This document shows, in pieces, positions 7,168 to 58,400 of a stretch of 64,000 bases of DNA. Position 1 is the stretch's first letter. The number at the start of each line of letters is the position of its first letter. The notes under the pieces were generated by a model. It had not been told where the DNA came from, did not search any database, and saw nothing but the letters and a program-made list of their open reading frames with translations. The position numbers were made by a program, and so were the translations under genes. The stretch comes from an uncultured Pseudomonadota bacterium (lineage in GTDB: Bacteria; Pseudomonadota; Alphaproteobacteria; UBA9219), in NCBI GenBank assembly GCA_903869345.1, contig CAIPYM010000024.1:3703-67702 (forward strand). Direction: 5' to 3'.

Positions 7168-8727
7168 TTACTCCCACTCGATCGTGCCGGGGGGTTTGCT
7201 GGTGATGTCGTAGACGACGCGGTTGATGCCCCGAACCTCCCCCACCAGGCGCGTGGCGACGCGGGCCAAGAAGTCATGCGGGAAGGGGTACGTGTCGGCG
7301 GTCATGCCATCCACCGAAGTCACGGCGCGAAGGGCCAGGACGTTGTCGTAGGACCTCTCGTCGCCCATGACACCGACGGTGCGGACGGGCAACAGGACCG
7401 CGAACGCTTGCCAGATGGAATCGTACAGACCGGCCTGGCGGATTTCGTCGAGGTAAACGGTATCGGCCCGGCGCAAAATGGCGACACGCTCCTCCGTCAC
7501 TTCGCCGAGAACGCGGATCGCCAACCCAGGGCCGGGAAAGGGGTGGCGGTTCACAAACGAATCCGGCAACCCCAATTCGCGCCCGAGGTCGCGCACCTCG
7601 TCCTTGAACAACTCGCGCAAGGGCTCCACGAGCTTGAGGTTCATGCGTGCGGGCAACCCACCGACGTTGTGGTGCGATTTGATCGTGGAGGCCGGGCCGC
7701 CATGCACCGCGACACTTTCGATCACGTCGGGATAAAGGGTCCCCTGGGCCAGGAACGTCGCCCCCGGAATCGTCTTGGCCTCGGCCTCAAACACGTCAAT
7801 GAACAAATGGCCGATGATCTTGCGTTTGCGCTCCGGGTCCGTGACGCCCTTCAGGGCCGCGAGGAACGTTTCACCTGCCCGAACGACGCGCAGAGGAATG
7901 GCATAGTGTTTCCCAAACAAGTCGGAAATCGCGTCGGCTTCGCCTTCACGCAAAAGCCCGGTGTCCACCAAAACGCAGGTCAGACGATCACCGATAGCCT
8001 CGTGAATGAGTGCGGCAGCCACGGCGCTGTCCACGCCGCCGGACAGACCGCAGAGGACTTTGGCCGTGGGGCCGATGAAGGTGCGAAGGCGCTCGACCTC
8101 GGTGGTGCGAAACGTGCCCATGGTCCAGGAAGGCGACAGACCGCACACATCGTGCGCGAAGGCCGCGAGGAGCGCCGCGCCGTCGGGCGTGTGGACGACT
8201 TCCGGATGGAATTGCACGCCGTAAAATTGGCGCTTTTCATCCGCGATGAACGCAAACGGCGCGCCGGAACTGGTGGCGATAACCTTGAAGCCGTCGGGCG
8301 CACGTGTAACGCGATCGCCGTGGCTCATCCACACGGTGGGGTGGCTGCCCACGGGCCAAACGTTCGCGCACAGGGCGCAAGACTCCGTGACAGCAAGCTC
8401 CGCGCGACCAAACTCCCGCGCATGGCCGGATTCAACCGCTCCCCCCAGTTGAGCGCACATCGTCTGTTGGCCGTAGCAAATGCCAAGGACGGGCACGCCC
8501 AGGGTCCAGACGGCGTCGGGGGCGCGGGGGCTTCCTTCGGCCACGACCGAGGTCGGCCCGCCCGAGAGGATGATTCCCCCCGGCCGGAACGCCCGCACAG
8601 CCTCGTCGCCGCAGTGATAAGGCAGGATGGCCGCATAGACGCCCGCTTCCCGCGCGCGTCGCGCAATCAGCTGGGTGACTTGCGAGCCGAAATCGAGGAT
8701 CAGAAGGCGGTCGTTGGGAGGCGTCAT
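7168..8727 (-). CDS. guaA: GMP synthase (glutamine-hydrolysing)
   Basis: 520 aa from ATG at 8727; GATase ([15 protein letters not shown]), ATP-PPase SGGVDSAV, C-terminal dimerisation domain ending IEWE. Confidence 0.95.
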
Positions 8728-13687: not shown

Positions 13688-13840
13688 TCAAACACGCCGG
13701 AGAATGATATAAATAACGAGAATGGCCAAAAGGACTCCAACGCCGCTGCTGGGGTAGTAGCCCCAGTGGATACTGTGCGGCCAGACCGGAACCGTTCCGA
13801 CAAGAAGCAGGGCGAGGATAATGGCAAGGACGAGAGTCAC
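13688..13840 (-). CDS. DUF3309-family small membrane protein (50 aa; below the 60-aa ORF track cutoff)
   Basis: Manual translation: VTLVLAIILALLLVGTVPVWPHSIHWGYYPSSGVGVLLAILVIYIILRRV; GTG start preceded by AAAAGGAGA; family hallmark (P.WP.S..WGY.PSGG flanked by two TM stretches). Confidence 0.55.
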   Translation of the reverse strand: MTLVLAIILALLLVGTVPVWPHSIHWGYYPSSGVGVLLAILVIYIILRRV

Positions 13841-34236: not shown

Positions 34237-34317
34237 CTTGACTCGGCGGGTTCAAAGGGGTATTGACAAACCCATGGCGTAGTGTACCCGCGTTTTGGCC
34301 GAATCGCGGGTTTTTTT
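34237..34317 (+). promoter_or_regulatory. Candidate sigma70-like promoter (TTGACT-N17-TATTGA) followed within about 45 nt by a terminator hairpin (ACCCGCG-N12-CGCGGGT plus T7): possible tiny transcript/attenuator
   Basis: Read directly from the sequence in the ispB/phosphoesterase intergenic region; contains a mini-ORF ATG-GCG-TAG. Confidence 0.3.
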
Positions 34318-34574: not shown

Positions 34575-36074
34575 ATGTTTAAAAAACAAGAAAGAACCAA
34601 GATTAAAACGGGCGACGTTCGCACGATTGAGATTCAGGGACTTGATTTTAAGCTGCAATTTATTCGTCGTGCCGATGGCACGGATGCTCTCTGTCATGAC
34701 ATGTCTATTTCAGACCTGCATTTGGGCACCTTCATGGCCTATGCCGGGGAACAAGCACATATGCTGTCCCACGTGCAGCCCCGGCGCCTATGGCTTGTGG
34801 GCGACATCGTCGATCTGGAGGCGATGAAGGGGAAAAGGCGTTTCAAATTCCCCGATAATCATTGGCTCGTTCTCGCCTCTCTTTTCAAGCTGGCCCATCA
34901 GGGAGCAGACGTCACCTATATTCCGGGCAATCACGAAGCTGAAAGGGTGCGCGGCAAAACAATTCAACAGGTTACAGGCACGGACAAGCATCATCGCCGC
35001 GCAACGGGGAGAACGCTCTTCGGGGTCAAGATCGAACACACGGCGGAATATATAACGGCTGACGGAAAAAAAGGCTTGGTTGAACATGGCGACGCCCGCG
35101 ATCCTCCGAGGATTAAGGCGCTTTATGGTATCGGGAACGCCGCCTACGAGCTTGTGGCGCGGCTTGATAAGGTCATTCATCATCAATTTGTTCAGACCGT
35201 CCTGCAGTGCATTTCCCCACCCCTCGCGGAACGCGCGAAGCATTTTTCGCCTGCACGCGCGGCGAAGCACCTCATTAAAGATTTCATCAACAAACACATG
35301 GGCGTCCTATCGGGCCTGGAAACGTGGCTGCGAGACTCGCCATATACTTTTATCCTCTATGGCCATACCCATATGCCGGGCATTGTCAAAGTTGTTACGG
35401 AGGGCGGCACAAAATACATCATCAACGACGGTTGTGGCACGGAGGGGGTTAGCGCGGCTCTGTTTGATGCCGATGGCAAGCCTGCCATCATGCGTTGGTG
35501 TTCGGATCGTATCGAGGTGACGGATGCAGACGGCACGACCAAAACGGTCGTCTTTGCCGACTATGGCATCAAGATCGACCCGACGCATCACCCGATCACC
35601 CGGGACGTGAACACTGGGCAGGCAAGCCACCCGTTCGTTCAACCAGAGTATTTTGATCGAACAGCGCGTGTTCTGCGTGTGATCCGGCAGATTGTGCCTG
35701 GGAAAGAGCGACTCCACCTGCTTGCTCAATACCGTCAGGCACGACGTGAGGTGGGATGGAGACAAAAGCAAAGCGCGTCAACACCCCAGGATTCACAACG
35801 TGTGATCAATCTCAGGATAAGACTTCGGCAAGAAGCCGAACGCACGATGCCAACCTATCCTGAGCCCCACCGTGCGGCGCAGGTGAAATGGCGTAAAGCG
35901 AGAGGGCGGATGCGGGCGAGGCGGAACAGAGTCGCGGGGGTTATTGCTTTATTTGACCCAACTGCTGCAGAAGTATTCCGAACCTCAGTAATAAGACGAC
36001 CGTCGTTCAAGCGTGTCTTACCCCCAGGTGCTTTTCAACACCCCCCCCCTTCGATGGGCGAGCTCACCCTCTAA
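34575..36074 (+). CDS. Calcineurin-like metallophosphoesterase with a long basic C-terminal extension, in an AT-richer islet
   Basis: Metallophosphatase motifs ISDLHLG, GDIVD, GNHE, GHTH; C-terminal 170 aa Arg/Lys-rich (RQARREVGWRQK...WRKARGRMRARRNR) without recognisable domain; GC about 52%. Confidence 0.65.
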   Translation: MFKKQERTKIKTGDVRTIEIQGLDFKLQFIRRADGTDALCHDMSISDLHLGTFMAYAGEQAHMLSHVQPRRLWLVGDIVDLEAMKGKRRFKFPDNHWLVLASLFKLAHQGADVTYIPGNHEAERVRGKTIQQVTGTDKHHRRATGRTLFGVKIEHTAEYITADGKKGLVEHGDARDPPRIKALYGIGNAAYELVARLDKVIHHQFVQTVLQCISPPLAERAKHFSPARAAKHLIKDFINKHMGVLSGLETWLRDSPYTFILYGHTHMPGIVKVVTEGGTKYIINDGCGTEGVSAALFDADGKPAIMRWCSDRIEVTDADGTTKTVVFADYGIKIDPTHHPITRDVNTGQASHPFVQPEYFDRTARVLRVIRQIVPGKERLHLLAQYRQARREVGWRQKQSASTPQDSQRVINLRIRLRQEAERTMPTYPEPHRAAQVKWRKARGRMRARRNRVAGVIALFDPTAAEVFRTSVIRRPSFKRVLPPGAFQHPPPSMGELTL

Positions 36075-53471: not shown

Positions 53472-54998
53472 CTAGAGCGTTTCCGCTGTCCTTGAGGGGG
53501 CCATCATCCGCGCGTCGGTGGATTTCTCCCGACGGCGCTGGCTGGACGTTGGAATGCGGAGAGCCTCCCGGTATTTCGCCACCGTTCGCCGCGCAACAAT
53601 CATGCCCTCGGTGCGCAGCAGCGCCGCGAGGTGATCGTCCGACAAAACCTCCTCGGGACGTTCAGAAGCAATAAGCCCCCGGATCCGTGCACGCACTGCC
53701 GCCGCCGCAACGCTGTCCTCTGCGTGCATGGAGGTTGTGGCGAGCGCGTTGGTGAACAGCGACCGCAGCGCGATAACGCCGCGTGGCGTTGCCAGGTATT
53801 TATTCTGCGTGACACGGCTCACCGTGGATTCGTGCATGGCCACCGTCTCGGCGACCTCGCGCAACGACAAGGGCCGCAGCCCCGCGATGCCTTGCGTAAA
53901 AAAGGCCTCTTGGTGGCGTACAACTTCCGCCGTCACCGTCACAAGTGTCGTCAGGCGTTGATGCAGGGCTTTCACAAGCCACGTCGCCCGTTGCCACCTC
54001 TCCCCCAGATAGGCCCGATCTTCAACGGAACGCGCCGCGCGGCGCACGTCCACGTAATAGGACTCGTTGGCGAGAACGCGCGGGACCGTCTCGGGGTTGA
54101 CCTCCAGACGCCACCCCCCAGCTTGCGGGTACACAAAAACGTCCGGCACGATGGGCGTCGCGGCTGTCGCCGTAAACCGCGTGGCCGGTTTAGGGTCGAG
54201 CCTGCGCAACGTCGCCAAAAGATCGGATAACCCTTCCGCATCCACGTTGCAGAGTTTCATCAGCGCCGCCCGTTCACGCCGCGCGACAAGATCCAAACGG
54301 CTCAGCAAAATCTGCATCGGAGCCGTCAGCTTGCCCTGATCCTCCACCTGAAGGGTCAGGCATTCTTCCAGCGAGCGCGCGAAAATCCCCGGAGGATCGA
54401 GTTTTTGGAGCCGCTCGACAACATGGTCCACGACCTCCAGCGAAACACCACCTTGAGCAGCCAGGGCCGAAAGGTCGGTGGGCAAGTACCCCGCCTCATC
54501 CAGGTGATCCATCAAGGCCTCGGCGAGAATCCGCTCGCCCGGATCGGGAAAGTCCAGGGCAATCTGGTCCCCGAGGTGCTCCCGCAAGGTGGGGGGCGAG
54601 GTCAGGCGATGAAGGGCCTCAAACGCATCATCGTCATCGTCCCCAAAACCGCCGCCGCCCCGACTGCCAAACGCCTCGCCGTACATCGGCCCCTCGTCGG
54701 AATGGAGACCCGTCAATGGCCCTGGGCCCTCGGTCGTGCCTTCCGTTCCCGACGATGGCCCCGAAACCGTCGGTGCGGCGGAAGAGCCCCCACTCCCCGC
54801 AACAACCACGCGGCTGAGGATATGAGTCTCGGGCTCAGCCTCCGGACGATCTAAAAGGGGATTCGTTTCCACCTCGCCCGCCACAAACGCTTCGACGTCT
54901 TGGTGCGCCATCGGCAAAAGCTCAATCGCTTGCCGCAACGCAGGCGTCATCACCAGCGTTTGTGTCGTCCGAAGGTCAAGGCGTTGCGCGAGATGCAT
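53472..54998 (-). CDS. rpoN: RNA polymerase sigma-54 factor
   Basis: ATG at 54998; N-terminal region I (LRTTQTLVMTPALRQAIELL), core-binding domain, C-terminal RpoN box ARRTVAKYREAL. Confidence 0.9.
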   Translation of the reverse strand: MHLAQRLDLRTTQTLVMTPALRQAIELLPMAHQDVEAFVAGEVETNPLLDRPEAEPETHILSRVVVAGSGGSSAAPTVSGPSSGTEGTTEGPGPLTGLHSDEGPMYGEAFGSRGGGGFGDDDDDAFEALHRLTSPPTLREHLGDQIALDFPDPGERILAEALMDHLDEAGYLPTDLSALAAQGGVSLEVVDHVVERLQKLDPPGIFARSLEECLTLQVEDQGKLTAPMQILLSRLDLVARRERAALMKLCNVDAEGLSDLLATLRRLDPKPATRFTATAATPIVPDVFVYPQAGGWRLEVNPETVPRVLANESYYVDVRRAARSVEDRAYLGERWQRATWLVKALHQRLTTLVTVTAEVVRHQEAFFTQGIAGLRPLSLREVAETVAMHESTVSRVTQNKYLATPRGVIALRSLFTNALATTSMHAEDSVAAAAVRARIRGLIASERPEEVLSDDHLAALLRTEGMIVARRTVAKYREALRIPTSSQRRREKSTDARMMAPSRTAETL

Positions 54999-55376
54999 TG
55001 GTGGCCATGATTCGCAGAAAAGCGTCCCGGCTTTATAGCACACCCTTCCTCCTCGTGCTCCACGACGTGTGTGTCCGCGCGTGGACAAACGCGGGAAAGA
55101 CATGCTACCCAGAGGGCCTTCGAGGACGCTTTCTGATTCGTTCCCGGCTTTCGCCCGCTTCGGTTATTTGGACGTTCCGCCATGGCCCTTTCCGGTCCCT
55201 CCACCGTTTCCGAGAGCTCGTCGCGCAGCACCATATCCCCCCTGCGGGGGACACGTGGAGCCTACGCGGGACGGGGCACTGAATCCGTCGAAGCGGCTCC
55301 GTCAGGGACAACGGGCGGATCGTCGGGGTCGTCAAACGGCCGAGCCGATTCACGTGCCCTCACGATGGATGCGGTC

Positions 55377-55970
55377 TCAAGTGGTGCCGGGACCCTGCGG
55401 GGTAGCGTCCCTCGGGGCACGTACGTCGATCTCCTTGTGTAAAGACCGCAGAGGCTTCGGTTGCGCGATCGGAAGGCCGTACCACCGCACAAGAGCAGCA
55501 AGCCCGTCGGTCAGAATCGGCAAGGTCCTTAAAAGCGGCATTTGATTCTCACAAGCAACGCTGATCACCCGGTCCCGTCCAGCGACGGGAACAGCCTGAA
55601 CAGCTTTGCACCACCGTTGATAAGCCGCTTCTTGGGCGTCGGTTCGGTCGTCCCCGTCGAACGGGTTGAAGGCTCCGCGGAGGGGCGAATAGCTGCCCCC
55701 CACGCGGGCGGCGAGTCCGGCCCCGCGGTAATCAGCAGCAAGACGCAAGCCCGCCGTGCGCTGCTCGTCGCTGACCAAACGACGCGCGTTCAGAAAGTCC
55801 AGGACGTGCTCGTCCATCACGCACGCCACAACAACGCCAGGACATTCCGTTGCCTTCAAGAGGCGCCCCGAGTGCTGCCAACGCTCCCGAGGCCCCGTGT
55901 CGATCCCGGCCTTGGGGGTCCGCTGACCGACCCGCCTGTTTGATCCGTGGAAAGAAGAACCGACTGCCAT
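55377..55970 (-). CDS. Hypothetical protein divergent from the CI/LexA-like repressor
   Basis: 197-aa ORF with backbone-like GC; no confidently recognisable domain; shares the palindrome-containing intergenic region with the repressor gene. Confidence 0.45.
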   Translation of the reverse strand: MAVGSSFHGSNRRVGQRTPKAGIDTGPRERWQHSGRLLKATECPGVVVACVMDEHVLDFLNARRLVSDEQRTAGLRLAADYRGAGLAARVGGSYSPLRGAFNPFDGDDRTDAQEAAYQRWCKAVQAVPVAGRDRVISVACENQMPLLRTLPILTDGLAALVRWYGLPIAQPKPLRSLHKEIDVRAPRDATPQGPGTT

Positions 55971-56015
55971 CGTTTCACCTCTGCTGTTAGACCCCGTTGA
56001 TCCGGGAGGCGCAAA

Positions 56016-56032
56016 GTATCCAAAATGGATAC
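56016..56032. promoter_or_regulatory. Perfect 17-bp palindrome GTATCCA-AAA-TGGATAC between divergent genes; candidate operator
   Basis: 7+3+7 perfect inverted repeat, 100 bp upstream of the repressor start codon. Confidence 0.45.
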
Positions 56033-56131
56033 GGTTGTCGAGAAAAATTCTGGCCCTCGTTTGGAAGGGTACCGATGCATGCAGAAGACCCTCTGGGCAA
56101 ACGCTCCGGGACAGGGTAGCGTCGCGGCGCT

Positions 56132-56767
56132 ATGGAAACTTCCGTGAACCGAATCAGGGCATGGCGTATTGCGCGAGGCTGGAGCCTCCAGCGCTTGGCC
56201 GAGGCGTGTGGGACCAGCAAAAGCCAAGTGGATAAGTTGGAGCGGGGTGCACGTCGGCTGACCGTGGATTGGATGGTACGTCTGGCCAAACCTCTCGCTT
56301 GTGATCCTCGGGATCTTTTGGGGCTGACCGACGCCCCCCCCTCCCCCTCGGGGGCTGAAGGCCTGGGGGGACTCGGCCCCCTTCCCGTTCGCGGCCTCGC
56401 CCCCCTGGGACCAAGCCCCGAATCAGGTTTTAGAATGACCGATTCGGTTGTGGATGAAATCCCCCGCCCCTTCGCCCTGGCGCATGTCAAGGACGCCTAC
56501 GCCTTGTATGTCCTGACCACCGACATGGTCCCCATGTACAGGCTTCGGCAGGTCCTTTTGGTGCACCCTCATAAACCCCCCGTGACCGACGGCGGTGTCG
56601 TGTTGATGGCTCCCGACGGCACCGTGCGAATCCGAGCGTTCGTCCGCGCCAAAACGGGCGGAGGTCTTGTCGTGCGGCTTTATCAGCCGAAAGTCCGCGA
56701 CGAGACGTTGACGGCCAAAACCTTGGCCGCCGTTCACACCATTGTTGGCAGTCTGGAACCCGCCTAA
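56132..56767 (+). CDS. XRE-family HTH regulator with C-terminal S24 (LexA/CI-like) peptidase domain; nucleophile Ser apparently not conserved
   Basis: HTH IRAWRIARGWSLQRLAEACGTSKSQVDKLERG; Pro/Gly-rich linker; S24-like beta domain, but the G-D-S-M position reads T-T-D-M-V. Confidence 0.75.
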   Translation: METSVNRIRAWRIARGWSLQRLAEACGTSKSQVDKLERGARRLTVDWMVRLAKPLACDPRDLLGLTDAPPSPSGAEGLGGLGPLPVRGLAPLGPSPESGFRMTDSVVDEIPRPFALAHVKDAYALYVLTTDMVPMYRLRQVLLVHPHKPPVTDGGVVLMAPDGTVRIRAFVRAKTGGGLVVRLYQPKVRDETLTAKTLAAVHTIVGSLEPA

Positions 56768-56807: not shown

Positions 56808-58112
56808 TTACGTTTTGTCCGCGAATCGACAGGCTTCCGCTCGGCAATCCTCCCGCGTCGGCTGAAAATCACGGGCTCGCCACCACGCTTCAACAGCACG
56901 AAGAACAAGGCCCATCTCGGGCCCTTCCTCCCAGCCAAGCTTCCGCATGTCCTCGCCGTTTAAGGGAAACATCGGCGAGGTCCAGCCGTTGATCACTTCG
57001 CGCACCCCAACTTCGTCCAGCGTGAGCCCCTCCTCCGCCGTCCGCAAAAGAGCTGCCCCGAGAGCGACCTCCTCACCTTCGTCGTACAAGGCTTGCCGCA
57101 AAGCCGCTTGAAAAACCTTGGCCGTGTGGCCTGACGGAAGGTGGGCAGCAAGCCGTCCCCACGATTCCACCAGCCGTCCCTCGGCGCGGGACAGACGCAA
57201 CGCTTCGGTCACCCGTTGCGCGGATTCGGGGGTCGGGGGCGTTAAGGCCGTGAGGCGCAAGAGTCCCGTACGGCGAAGGTTCTCCCCCCTCCCGGCGAAA
57301 GTCTCGTCGGCCGCAAGCTGGGCAGCCACCAGCCGAACCCAACGCTCCTCGGTTGGCGGGACCGGGAGAATCCGTGCCGTTGCGCCGCACGCGGTCATCA
57401 AAGCCCAGGCGGAACGCGGGTCCGGCGCGGCCAGAAGCTTCAGGATCTCGTGCCCCACGCGCTCACGCGAAAGCCCACCCAGAAGCGGCGAAAAGCGTCG
57501 GCAAGCGTCCACCGCTTCGGGGTCAGGCTCCCCTTGTCCCAGCCACGCCGTGAAGCGAAAGAATCGCAGAAGACGAAGTGAATCCTCCCGCACACGGTCC
57601 TCGGCCCGTCCGATAAAACGCACGAGGCCCCGCGCGAGGTCCCGTCGCCCTTCCGTGAAATCGCGAATCGTCCCGTCCTCGTCCGCGTAAAGCGCGTTGA
57701 ACGTAAAATCGCGCCGCGTGGCATCGGTTTCCCAGTCGTCGCTAAAGGCGACTTCCGCCCGCCGTCCGAACGTCCGCACATCGCGCCGAAGCGTCGTGAT
57801 CTCGTACCCCTTGCCGTCCGCAACCGCCGTGATGGTGCCGTGCGCCATGCCGGTTGGGATTCCTTTCAGGCCCGCACGCTGCAGGGCGTCTAAAACCCCC
57901 TCGGGCTGCAGGGTGGTCGCGAAATCCACCTCGTTCACCGGGCGGCCTATCAGGGCGTCACGCACCGCCCCCCCCACAAACCGTGTGATTCCTCCGCAGG
58001 GCCTGAGAGCGTCCAAGACCGTCCGCACACCCGGCGCGACAAGCCAAAGGTGCGCTGCGGGGTCCAAACGATCCCCGAGCGAGGATTCCGAAAACAGGCC
58101 GTTCGTGGTCAT
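56808..58112 (-). CDS. cca: CCA tRNA nucleotidyltransferase / poly(A) polymerase family
   Basis: Head domain GGAVRD...DFATT...RRDFTFNALY; ATG at 58112 (a TTG at 58136 is also possible). Confidence 0.85.
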   Translation of the reverse strand: MTTNGLFSESSLGDRLDPAAHLWLVAPGVRTVLDALRPCGGITRFVGGAVRDALIGRPVNEVDFATTLQPEGVLDALQRAGLKGIPTGMAHGTITAVADGKGYEITTLRRDVRTFGRRAEVAFSDDWETDATRRDFTFNALYADEDGTIRDFTEGRRDLARGLVRFIGRAEDRVREDSLRLLRFFRFTAWLGQGEPDPEAVDACRRFSPLLGGLSRERVGHEILKLLAAPDPRSAWALMTACGATARILPVPPTEERWVRLVAAQLAADETFAGRGENLRRTGLLRLTALTPPTPESAQRVTEALRLSRAEGRLVESWGRLAAHLPSGHTAKVFQAALRQALYDEGEEVALGAALLRTAEEGLTLDEVGVREVINGWTSPMFPLNGEDMRKLGWEEGPEMGLVLRAVEAWWRARDFQPTREDCRAEACRFADKT

Positions 58113-58400
58113 GGTGGGAGCATCCGAAAGAAACAACGTGCACCCAGTGTGCGGCGGAGGCGCGTTCGGTGCAATTCCTAACGTCCTATAGGTTGCAGGA
58201 GATACGGCGGTGTTCCTTCGCCCCTTAAAGCGTCATGGACCTCACGACGACACGTCGTCTCCGCCAGAACGCAACCGAGGCTAAACGGGTTCTTTGGAGA
58301 GCCTTCAGCCACACGTCAACGATCGGGCGCTGAATCCCCAGTTGACCCTTCCCATTTTTTAAGGCACGCCCTTTCTTGCTGAAAGAAGGGGGGGTCGACC

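Follow-up and report, generated by a model that had tools for sequence, protein, structure and literature searches.

A 64-kb stretch of DNA from an uncultured Pseudomonadota bacterium (contig CAIPYM010000024.1; this whole stretch is referred to below as the window) contains a gene for a 211-amino-acid (aa) repressor of the CI/LexA kind (56132-56767, + strand), divergent from a gene for a 197-aa protein of the DUF6456 family (55377-55970, - strand), with a spacer of 161 bp between the two open reading frames (ORFs). In our view the pair is likely to act as master switch for a gene transfer agent (GTA, a domesticated phage that transports host DNA) resembling that of Rhodobacter capsulatus (RcGTA), in a lineage-specific form in which the two regulators are linked in cis. 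GTA regulation has so far been worked out in two models only, GafA in Rhodobacter and RogA/GafYZ in Caulobacter. The original prediction for this locus, made from the DNA letters alone, described a divergent pair of a 197-aa protein and a helix-turn-helix (HTH)-XRE/S24 protein, which the ORF coordinates and domain matches bear out, and suggested a domesticated, phage-derived regulatory module, which is supported by the fact that the same pair heads GTA clusters in relatives. Its further suggestion that the module might be uncharacterised does not hold in that form, as a non-cleavable LexA-like repressor that silences GTA activators has been published (PMC9632790, PMC11150451). What appears to be undescribed in the literature searched, although a prior description elsewhere is possible, is an XRE-HTH/S24 repressor that is cis-linked to, and divergent from, a stand-alone DUF6456 gene heading a GTA cluster; the same is true of the operator, the promoter motif at the GTA head, the mixed state of the catalytic dyad and the co-travelling small ORF, all of which are presented below.

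The pair and GTA clusters in relatives

We compared the window with contigs that carry nine distinct repressor relatives (35-55% identity; L018 is the same sequence as L020). In all nine, the genes for the repressor and for a DUF6456 protein are arranged divergently, and in eight of them a GTA-type promoter comes next after the DUF6456 gene, with RcGTA-like head genes behind it where the sequence extends. A compact head set is present at L006/L007, L017, L018, L019, L044 and L045, comprising a small TerS-like ORF (g1), Terminase_6 (TerL), portal, S78 protease, capsid, adaptor, a head-closure protein, DUF2460 and BR0599; L045 has two extra genes in addition to this set. At L046 the cluster is divergent or decayed, with TerL alone recognisable, while at L021 the GTA promoter motif is present, and at L043 the pair stands without an adjacent cluster, as it does in the window. 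The search for the partner's family and its usual neighbourhood thus identified no housekeeping protein, and the neighbourhood was a GTA head cluster.

The repressor gene is adjoined by cca in the window, L006/L007, L017 and L046, and because cca flanks it in the window and in several relatives the ancestral order can be taken to be cca - repressor - DUF6456 - GTA cluster. In the window, the place of the relatives' GTA cluster is occupied by rpoN. The original prediction had seen no phage genes nearby, and for structural genes this stands across the whole window, but a GTA-type promoter motif at 34237-34268 qualifies it. Yet another arrangement is found at L004 (4702-6734), where cca directly abuts the DUF6456 gene and there is no repressor gene. 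The L004/L005 lineage has kept cca, the DUF6456 gene and a small ORF described below, whereas the repressor gene and operator are absent and no GTA genes lie within 6 kb, and the lineage represents a naturally occurring form of the module without repressor.

Two peculiarities of the relatives may be mentioned here. At L019 (48-1604) and L017 (1-1418) the Phage_HCP head-closure gene is followed by DUF2460 and BR0599-type genes, with no tail-tube or tape-measure genes between them, an order that differs from the canonical RcGTA order, and the GTA clusters of the relatives may be reduced or split. In one sub-lineage, L021 (3456-3828, - strand) and L045 (6486-6824, - strand), an extra conserved gene of 112-123 aa, in the DUF6456 operon, lies between the repressor and DUF6456 genes; it had no Pfam match and no similarity to GafY or GafZ.

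The repressor

The 211-aa protein consists of an XRE-type HTH (residues 7-62), a linker and a C-terminal domain of LexA/CI (S24) fold. In Pfam its N-terminus matched HTH_3 (41.2 bits) and HTH_31 (42.3 bits), and Peptidase_S24 (PF00717) scored 22.9 bits, just below the cut-off of 23.3, which most of its homologues (84 in number, the closest about 55% identical) pass. In PHROG it matched phrog_4, "transcriptional repressor" (E 1.4e-16). An AlphaFold2 model built with 31 homologues as input had a mean pLDDT of 92, and the top Foldseek matches of this model were lambda CI (3bdn, E 7e-6), LexA (3k2z, E 1.5e-5) and 186 CI (2fjr and 7jvt being among the top fold matches); Thermotoga and E. coli LexA and a 186 CI hybrid are included among the best structural matches, and the C-terminal fragment of lambda CI (2ho0) gave a target-normalised TM-score of 0.76. 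When the PDB was searched by sequence, with the repressor or its family profile, the HTH alone was matched (C.AhdI, SinR, ClgR). The CI/LexA-like architecture that had been proposed is thus supported by the HTH_3 match, the modelled fold and the CI/LexA structural matches.

It had also been proposed that the catalytic Ser is lost, and this was confirmed. Residues 129-133 read T-T-D-M-V (context L-T-T-D-M-V), and in a MAFFT alignment with LexA, lambda CI and UmuD, Asp131 falls in the column of LexA Ser119 and Arg168 in that of LexA Lys156, so that the general-base Lys is lost as well and no intact Ser-Lys dyad is present. The GMSM/GNSM/GDSM and VKRL/FKKL/VKKL motifs of E. coli LexA, lambda CI and UmuD occupy the expected columns; independently of MAFFT, the same dyad register was obtained when the family profile was aligned to LexA and CI with hhalign. 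In the columns that hold the LexA cleavage site Ala84-Gly85, where the linker alignment is uncertain, the window protein has Leu-Gly and its relatives mostly Gly-Gly, while a conserved LPVRG motif is retained in the linker. From these residues, the 211-aa protein is not expected to cleave itself.

Across the family the dyad is variable. Of 76 members, 36 retain both Ser and Lys, 12 retain just Ser, three just Lys and 25 neither one, and the family is apparently, judging from these alignments, a mix of cleavable and non-cleavable forms. The replacements are varied (A, D, N, T, G or K for Ser; R, G, A or Y for Lys), and members that adjoin an intact GTA cluster are also among those without a dyad (P0030/L018 and P0067/L019). 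The nearest relatives of the window protein carry Ser/Lys, yet the window protein and Caulobacter RogA share Asp/Arg, which looks like convergent loss. The recognition-helix region, on the other hand, is nearly invariant across the family, in agreement with the conservation of the operator described below.

The DUF6456 partner

The only family match of the 197-aa protein in Pfam was DUF6456 (26.3 bits, E 9e-6, exactly at the gathering cut-off), and we regard the protein as a borderline, divergent member of this family; PF20057 is carried by 22 of its 24 database homologues. DUF6456 is the family of GafA, the direct activator of the R. capsulatus GTA (PMC9638019, PMC9765227), whose function is split in Caulobacter between GafY and GafZ. 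To compare these proteins, we fetched the Caulobacter genes by means of the primers published in Table S3, rogA from genome contigs and gafY and gafZ from metagenome contigs (a search of IMG/VR with the gafY primer had no match). In Pfam, GafZ matched DUF6456 (146.6 bits), GafY matched Bac_DnaA_C (DnaA domain IV), and RogA matched Peptidase_S24 and Xre-like-HTH. Because it is GafZ, and not GafY, that has DUF6456, the 197-aa protein is of the GafZ / GafA-C-terminal type; no Bac_DnaA_C was found in it with Pfam, and a GafY-like identity was rejected. The family profile of the 197-aa protein aligned with residues 130-242 of GafZ (hhalign, E 5.6e-5, probability 66%).

The C-terminal helical module of the protein resembles sigma region 4, after which come about 30 non-conserved residues at the C-terminus. 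A Foldseek search of the model against the PDB gave no significant match, and PDB sequence searches with the protein gave nothing. We would describe it as a putative GTA activator or antiterminator, and two of the earlier suggestions about it have to be given up: a CI/Cro-type switch, as the locus has, instead of a Cro-like repressor, a GafA/GafZ-family partner whose fold is sigma-region-4-like, and a toxin-like module, as it has no PADLOC match and no toxin or enzyme domain. Two weak tblastn matches elsewhere in the window were rejected as chance, one of GafZ near 49.1 kb, inside a pssA-like ORF, and one of the relatives' DUF6456 protein near 18.9 kb, inside a prephenate-dehydrogenase-like ORF.

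Putative operator and promoter of the DUF6456 gene

The spacer between the two genes contains the inverted repeat O1, GTATCCAAAATGGATAC (56016-56032), with the consensus GTATCC-N5-GGATAC, which is the putative site of the 211-aa repressor dimer. The original prediction had called it a perfect palindrome of 17 bp; this overstates it, since the repeat is of 7-3-7 type, with arms GTATCCA and TGGATAC of only 7 bp around AAA (positions 8 and 10 are A and A). Its role as the likely operator, in contrast, is supported. GTATCC-N5-GGATAC occurs once in the 64 kb and in none of 100 shuffles, and allowing up to two mismatches the sole other operator-like match in the window was at 13757, where 0.85 are expected by chance; this site, with one mismatch, lies inside a small membrane-protein ORF and was rejected as being at chance level. 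In the ten loci (the window and the nine distinct relatives) the motif is present, with zero to two mismatches, in the homologous intergenic region of every one, and almost nowhere else in the 5-17 kb of each locus. L004, the locus without a repressor gene, has no such motif. Such conservation is stronger evidence than the statistics of the window.

The operator coincides with an inferred core promoter of the DUF6456 gene (56013-56041, - strand), in which a -35-like TCGACA (56041-56036) and a -10-like TACTTT (56018-56013) are separated by a 17-bp spacer occupied by O1. In the ten loci a -35-like hexamer of the T[TCG]GAC[AG] type (TTGACA, TCGACA, TGGACA and the like) lies 3-4 bp upstream of the operator on the strand of the DUF6456 gene, the weakest being TTGCAT in L046, and in nine of the ten the terminal TAC of the operator opens the -10-like hexamer (in L019 the best -10 is one base off). 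The -35/-10 scores of the ten loci are 7-10 of 12, all in the same register.

In most relatives a second, weaker operator-like site lies about 16 bp further toward the repressor gene, which suggests autoregulation. L017 has an additional operator-like site, GTATCCGTATTGGTTAC (8631-8647, one mismatch), at the stop codon of the repressor gene. The repressor genes of the relatives are without a Shine-Dalgarno sequence, and by eye a TAnAnT-like hexamer is seen whose end lies some 6-7 nt from the ATG (e.g. in L019, L006, L017 and L018), which suggests that their mRNAs are leaderless; the counterpart in the window, TAGCGT, is weaker and 3 nt further from the ATG, again by eye.

A GTA-type promoter motif in the window

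Between the DUF6456 gene and the first GTA gene, the relatives have a conserved CTTGAC-N17-GTATTGAC(A/T), followed by a CCACGGCGtActG box (this downstream box can also be written CCACGGCG or CCAyGGCG). Directly in front of the first GTA gene, the motif is found in 11 relatives (L006, L017, L018, L019, L021, L044, L045, L046, L073, L091 and L134), which include three additional contigs from IMG/VR; each locus has one copy, always just ahead of the GTA cluster. Among 88 exact motif matches in IMG/VR, most of them due to chance, four (L073, L091, L109 and L134) head GTA clusters of this lineage, and three of these four also carry the downstream box.

The window has a single copy of this motif, CTTGAC-N17-GTATTGACA followed by aacCCATGGCGTAGTG (34237-34290, + strand; the motif itself, 34237-34268, has no mismatch and the box has one), 21 kb from the pair and on the opposite strand to the DUF6456 gene. 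The region agrees with 26 of the 36 columns that are conserved in at least 80% of the relatives, and by a rough hand estimate, not computed by a tool, about 1e-4 exact motifs would be expected by chance in 64 kb. A consensus sigma-70 scanner called no promoter in this region. The motif at 34237 is a candidate target of the DUF6456 protein.

The ORF that follows (34575-36074, + strand, 499 aa) is a calcineurin-like metallophosphoesterase (Pfam Metallophos, 26.5 bits). It occupies a low-GC island of 1.9 kb (53-57%, versus 63-68% in the flanks) that encodes nothing else, and it had no PHROG match and no relative in IMG/VR or in any GTA locus fetched. It is possible that this gene is a member of the regulon, and that a GTA promoter was co-opted for an acquired phosphoesterase gene. 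The leader after the promoter contains a GC-rich hairpin followed by U7, whose stability is not above that of shuffles (z = -0.7). We also considered rpoN as the heir of the GTA promoter, but rejected this because there is no motif upstream of rpoN.

A small convergent ORF

In every relative, a small ORF of 62-96 aa lies directly downstream of the DUF6456 gene and convergent to it (L017 7116-7352; L018 7027-7263; L043 6027-6263; L006 6512-6760; L004 6519-6734; L046 6211-6405). Its product starts with MVD, has a variable middle rich in Q, S and A, and ends in NLPRGSLVDILV. Databases contain 99 members of this family; all are annotated as "hypothetical", none has a Pfam domain, and they occur on the same contigs as the repressor family. 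The window has a possible remnant at 55365-55442 (+ strand), of which only the C-terminal ...VPRGTYVDLLV is recognisable; although it was the top match of the six-frame set, its similarity is weak (hmmsearch, E 0.11). The small protein is a candidate third component of the system, for example an antirepressor or a signal.

Annotation of the locus and its flanks

The flanks of the pair are as the original prediction had them, rpoN on one side, identified by its three Sigma54 domains (Pfam Sigma54_AID/CBD/DBD), and on the other cca, a gene of the poly(A) polymerase family (56808-58136, - strand; Pfam PolyA_pol, CCA-type nucleotidyltransferase), which serves as the synteny anchor. An Rfam scan of the window had no match. 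In the public record P0001 the repressor is annotated as 190 aa, from an internal TTG start with which the first helix of the HTH would be lost; the ATG at 56132 is the better start because homologues align from residue 1 of the 211-aa ORF. The annotated start of the DUF6456 gene of L044 likewise engulfs its own operator. Public annotations also place a 94-aa ORF between the DUF6456 gene and rpoN (54950-55234, - strand), which has no family match and overlaps a long upstream extension of rpoN; this ORF is probably spurious, and the likely start of rpoN is the Met at 54998.

Proposed mechanism and alternative explanations

The arrangement described above is consistent with the following mechanism. 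The 211-aa protein would dimerise through its C-terminal domain of LexA/CI fold and bind GTATCC-N5-GGATAC through the XRE HTH. The bound repressor would exclude RNA polymerase, because the operator covers the spacer of the DUF6456 promoter together with the start of its -10, and the DUF6456 protein would then stay off. Since Ser119 and Lys156 are replaced by Asp131 and Arg168, self-cleavage stimulated by RecA is not to be expected, and derepression would have to come from another input, be it turnover, an antirepressor or a ligand. Once made, the DUF6456 protein would activate or antiterminate at CTTGAC-N17-GTATTGACA promoters, which in the relatives means the head of the adjoining GTA cluster. 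Because no structural cluster lies beside the switch in the window, its targets would be distal (possibly a GTA cluster elsewhere in the genome) or the switch is a surviving relic; in this genome it may act on a GTA cluster located on another contig, on the phosphoesterase gene or on nothing at all.

Several observations weigh against taking the pair as a GTA switch. The window contains no GTA structural gene or homologue in its 64 kb, and the DUF6456 match of the window protein lies exactly at the Pfam threshold, while the hhalign probability that links its family to GafZ is only 66%. Caulobacter requires GafY plus IHF, and no GafY-like (DnaA domain IV) partner was found in the window, where the best tblastn match of GafY had an E-value of 1.5. 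The similarity of the repressor to RogA is confined to the C-terminal domain, and the GGAA-N4-TTCC repeats of the RogA operator are not found in the intergenic sequence of the window. Finally, the promoter hexamers of the window are weak (8 of 12), with none called by a consensus sigma-70 scanner, and its second operator-like site is degenerate.

One may therefore consider alternative explanations, the most serious of which is that the pair is a decaying relic, left behind after the GTA cluster was lost or relocated, that regulates nothing. Besides the missing cluster, with rpoN in its place, this could account for several signs of relaxed selection, namely the loss of the dyad, the degenerate second operator in an intergenic region that is longer than in the relatives, the truncated and barely recognisable counterpart of the small ORF, and the tail of about 30 non-conserved residues on the DUF6456 protein. 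However, both ORFs are intact and their products keep every family-invariant column, O1 is a perfect match with the -35-like hexamer in register, and an exact GTA-type promoter remains at 34237. The L043 lineage, too, keeps the pair without an adjacent cluster, and loss of the dyad is no sign of decay because it is common in relatives with an adjacent cluster (P0030/L018 and P0067/L019) and is seen in the functional RogA. We thus consider a mere relic unlikely. A further variant is that the repressor is still inactivated by proteolysis upon DNA damage, through an alternative nucleophile or a partner protease (cf. ImmA/ImmR and IrrE/DdrO). The ancestral mode was probably self-cleavage, given that 36 of 76 family members keep Ser-Lys, and the LPVRG linker motif is still in place, but Asp131 and Arg168 cannot form a Ser-Lys dyad, no protease gene is adjacent, and the residues at the LexA Ala84-Gly85 columns are Leu-Gly (in an uncertain linker alignment), which makes this variant very unlikely.

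The phrog_4 match, the structural matches to lambda and 186 CI and a divergent layout with an operator, like that of a phage switch, would also fit the immunity remnant of an ordinary temperate prophage unrelated to GTAs, with a CI-like repressor and a Cro- or Q-like partner. Since the partner is neither Cro nor Q but belongs to the GafA/GafZ family, the structural set of the relatives is compact, lacks called genes for integrase, replication or lysis over the stretches that were fetched, and occupies a conserved chromosomal site next to cca, as is typical of RcGTA-like elements, and no integrase or att-like features were seen in this region of the window, we find such an origin scarcely credible. 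As for a toxin-antitoxin or anti-phage defence pair, in which an XRE-HTH antitoxin or CapH-like regulator would accompany a 197-aa effector, weak matches to HipB, HigA and CapH-type models exist, yet they concern the HTH only. PADLOC likewise covers nothing beyond the generic HTH, the partner shows no PADLOC, toxin or enzyme domain, and the genes are divergent rather than co-transcribed, in a conserved context that is a GTA head cluster; this is the least probable of the explanations considered here.

Within the reading of the pair as a GTA switch, a more far-reaching picture can be drawn, although we hold it only tentatively and consider it rather doubtful as a whole. The locus might represent a compact GTA immunity region, kept joined to the GTA head genes in relatives, in which a CI-like repressor is combined with a stand-alone DUF6456 activator or antiterminator, independent of GafY, and with a conserved 62-96-aa protein as possible antirepressor or signal; it would be an evolutionary intermediate between a prophage lysis-lysogeny switch and the dispersed RogA/GafYZ circuit. 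In about half of the lineages the repressor might still be cleavable in the RecA/SOS response, which would make these GTAs inducible by DNA damage, while others, that of the window among them, would have become non-cleavable independently, via the same Asp/Arg as RogA. In the window the switch would have been uncoupled from its cluster, maybe to drive a horizontally acquired phosphoesterase gene from a retained GTA promoter.

The family bears on two questions, namely how control of GTAs evolved from a phage switch and which signal relieves RogA. It offers testable handles in the form of a cis-linked pair with a defined 17-bp operator, a sharply conserved GTA promoter and an unstudied small protein, and its natural variants with and without the dyad allow a direct test of whether some GTAs are induced by the SOS response. 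For annotation, a "LexA family regulator" and a "DUF6456 protein" found together beside cca indicate a GTA control locus, also where no phage-like genes are nearby.

Comparison with known systems

Like LexA, lambda CI and UmuD, the window repressor combines an HTH with a beta-rich C-terminal fold, and it has a palindromic operator that overlaps a promoter. Roughly half of its relatives keep the Ser-Lys dyad of these proteins, in G-x-S-M and K contexts, whereas the window protein has Asp/Arg at the dyad and no Ala-Gly at the aligned cleavage site. With only one exact operator in the 64 kb, it does not qualify as a global SOS regulator of the LexA kind. Another parallel is found in coliphage 186, whose CI-type repressor is non-cleavable and is relieved by the antirepressor Tum. 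The window repressor shares with 186 CI a CI fold without SOS self-cleavage, and its derepression would likewise depend on another factor; where 186 has Tum, the linked small ORF family is a candidate at this locus.

On the activator side, the DUF6456 or sigma-like C-terminal module of the window protein is shared with GafA of R. capsulatus, a direct activator of the GTA cluster. GafA binds the gafA promoter with this module, which is also its best-conserved part across orders (PMC6363796, PMC9638019). GafA, however, is a fusion protein of 42 kDa that also contains an N-terminal DnaA-like HTH and a central region that binds RNA polymerase omega, neither of which is recognisable in the window protein, and the divergent neighbour of gafA, rcc01866, is not described as an HTH/S24 repressor (PMC6363796, PMC9638019), unlike the neighbour in the window pair.

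The circuit closest to the one proposed here is that of Caulobacter, where RogA has been shown experimentally to repress gafYZ by binding the core promoter (PMC9632790). Gozzi et al. suggested that, in other orders, homologues of gafA or gafYZ may be under the control of RogA homologues (PMC9632790). The window repressor is only a distant relative of RogA, through the C-terminal domain alone. The HTH of the window repressor is of the classical XRE HTH_3 type and that of RogA is Xre-like-HTH, and a single 17-bp GTATCC-N5-GGATAC stands against two GGAA-N4-TTCC repeats. In the window the repressor and activator genes are adjacent and divergent (and in relatives joined to the GTA cluster), whereas in Caulobacter the three loci are dispersed. 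The activator of the window type is a single DUF6456 protein of 160-200 aa whose N-terminal region is unlike GafZ, with no DnaA-like GafY gene adjacent, and unlike the Caulobacter circuit the module has an extra conserved small ORF linked to it.

The two circuits also have features in common. RogA and the window repressor have nearly the same length (213 versus 211 aa), the same plan of an N-terminal HTH and a LexA/CI-like C-terminal domain, and the same replacements, Asp for the Ser and Arg for the Lys of the dyad. BLASTP aligned the window repressor with RogA (CCNA_00080) at 35% identity over 66 aa (E 2e-4, against nine sequences), and hhalign of the repressor family with RogA gave a probability of 96.8% (E 2e-10) over 96 columns, in the C-terminal domain only. 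The putative site of the window repressor overlaps the core promoter of the activator gene, as that of RogA does, the activator side likewise has a DUF6456 protein (GafZ) with a sigma-like HTH, and the output in the relatives of the window, as in Caulobacter, is an RcGTA-like cluster. Thus, the 211-aa protein appears to be RogA-like in architecture and inferred role, and the pair is, by this analogy, a cis-linked counterpart of the RogA-GafYZ circuit of Caulobacter.

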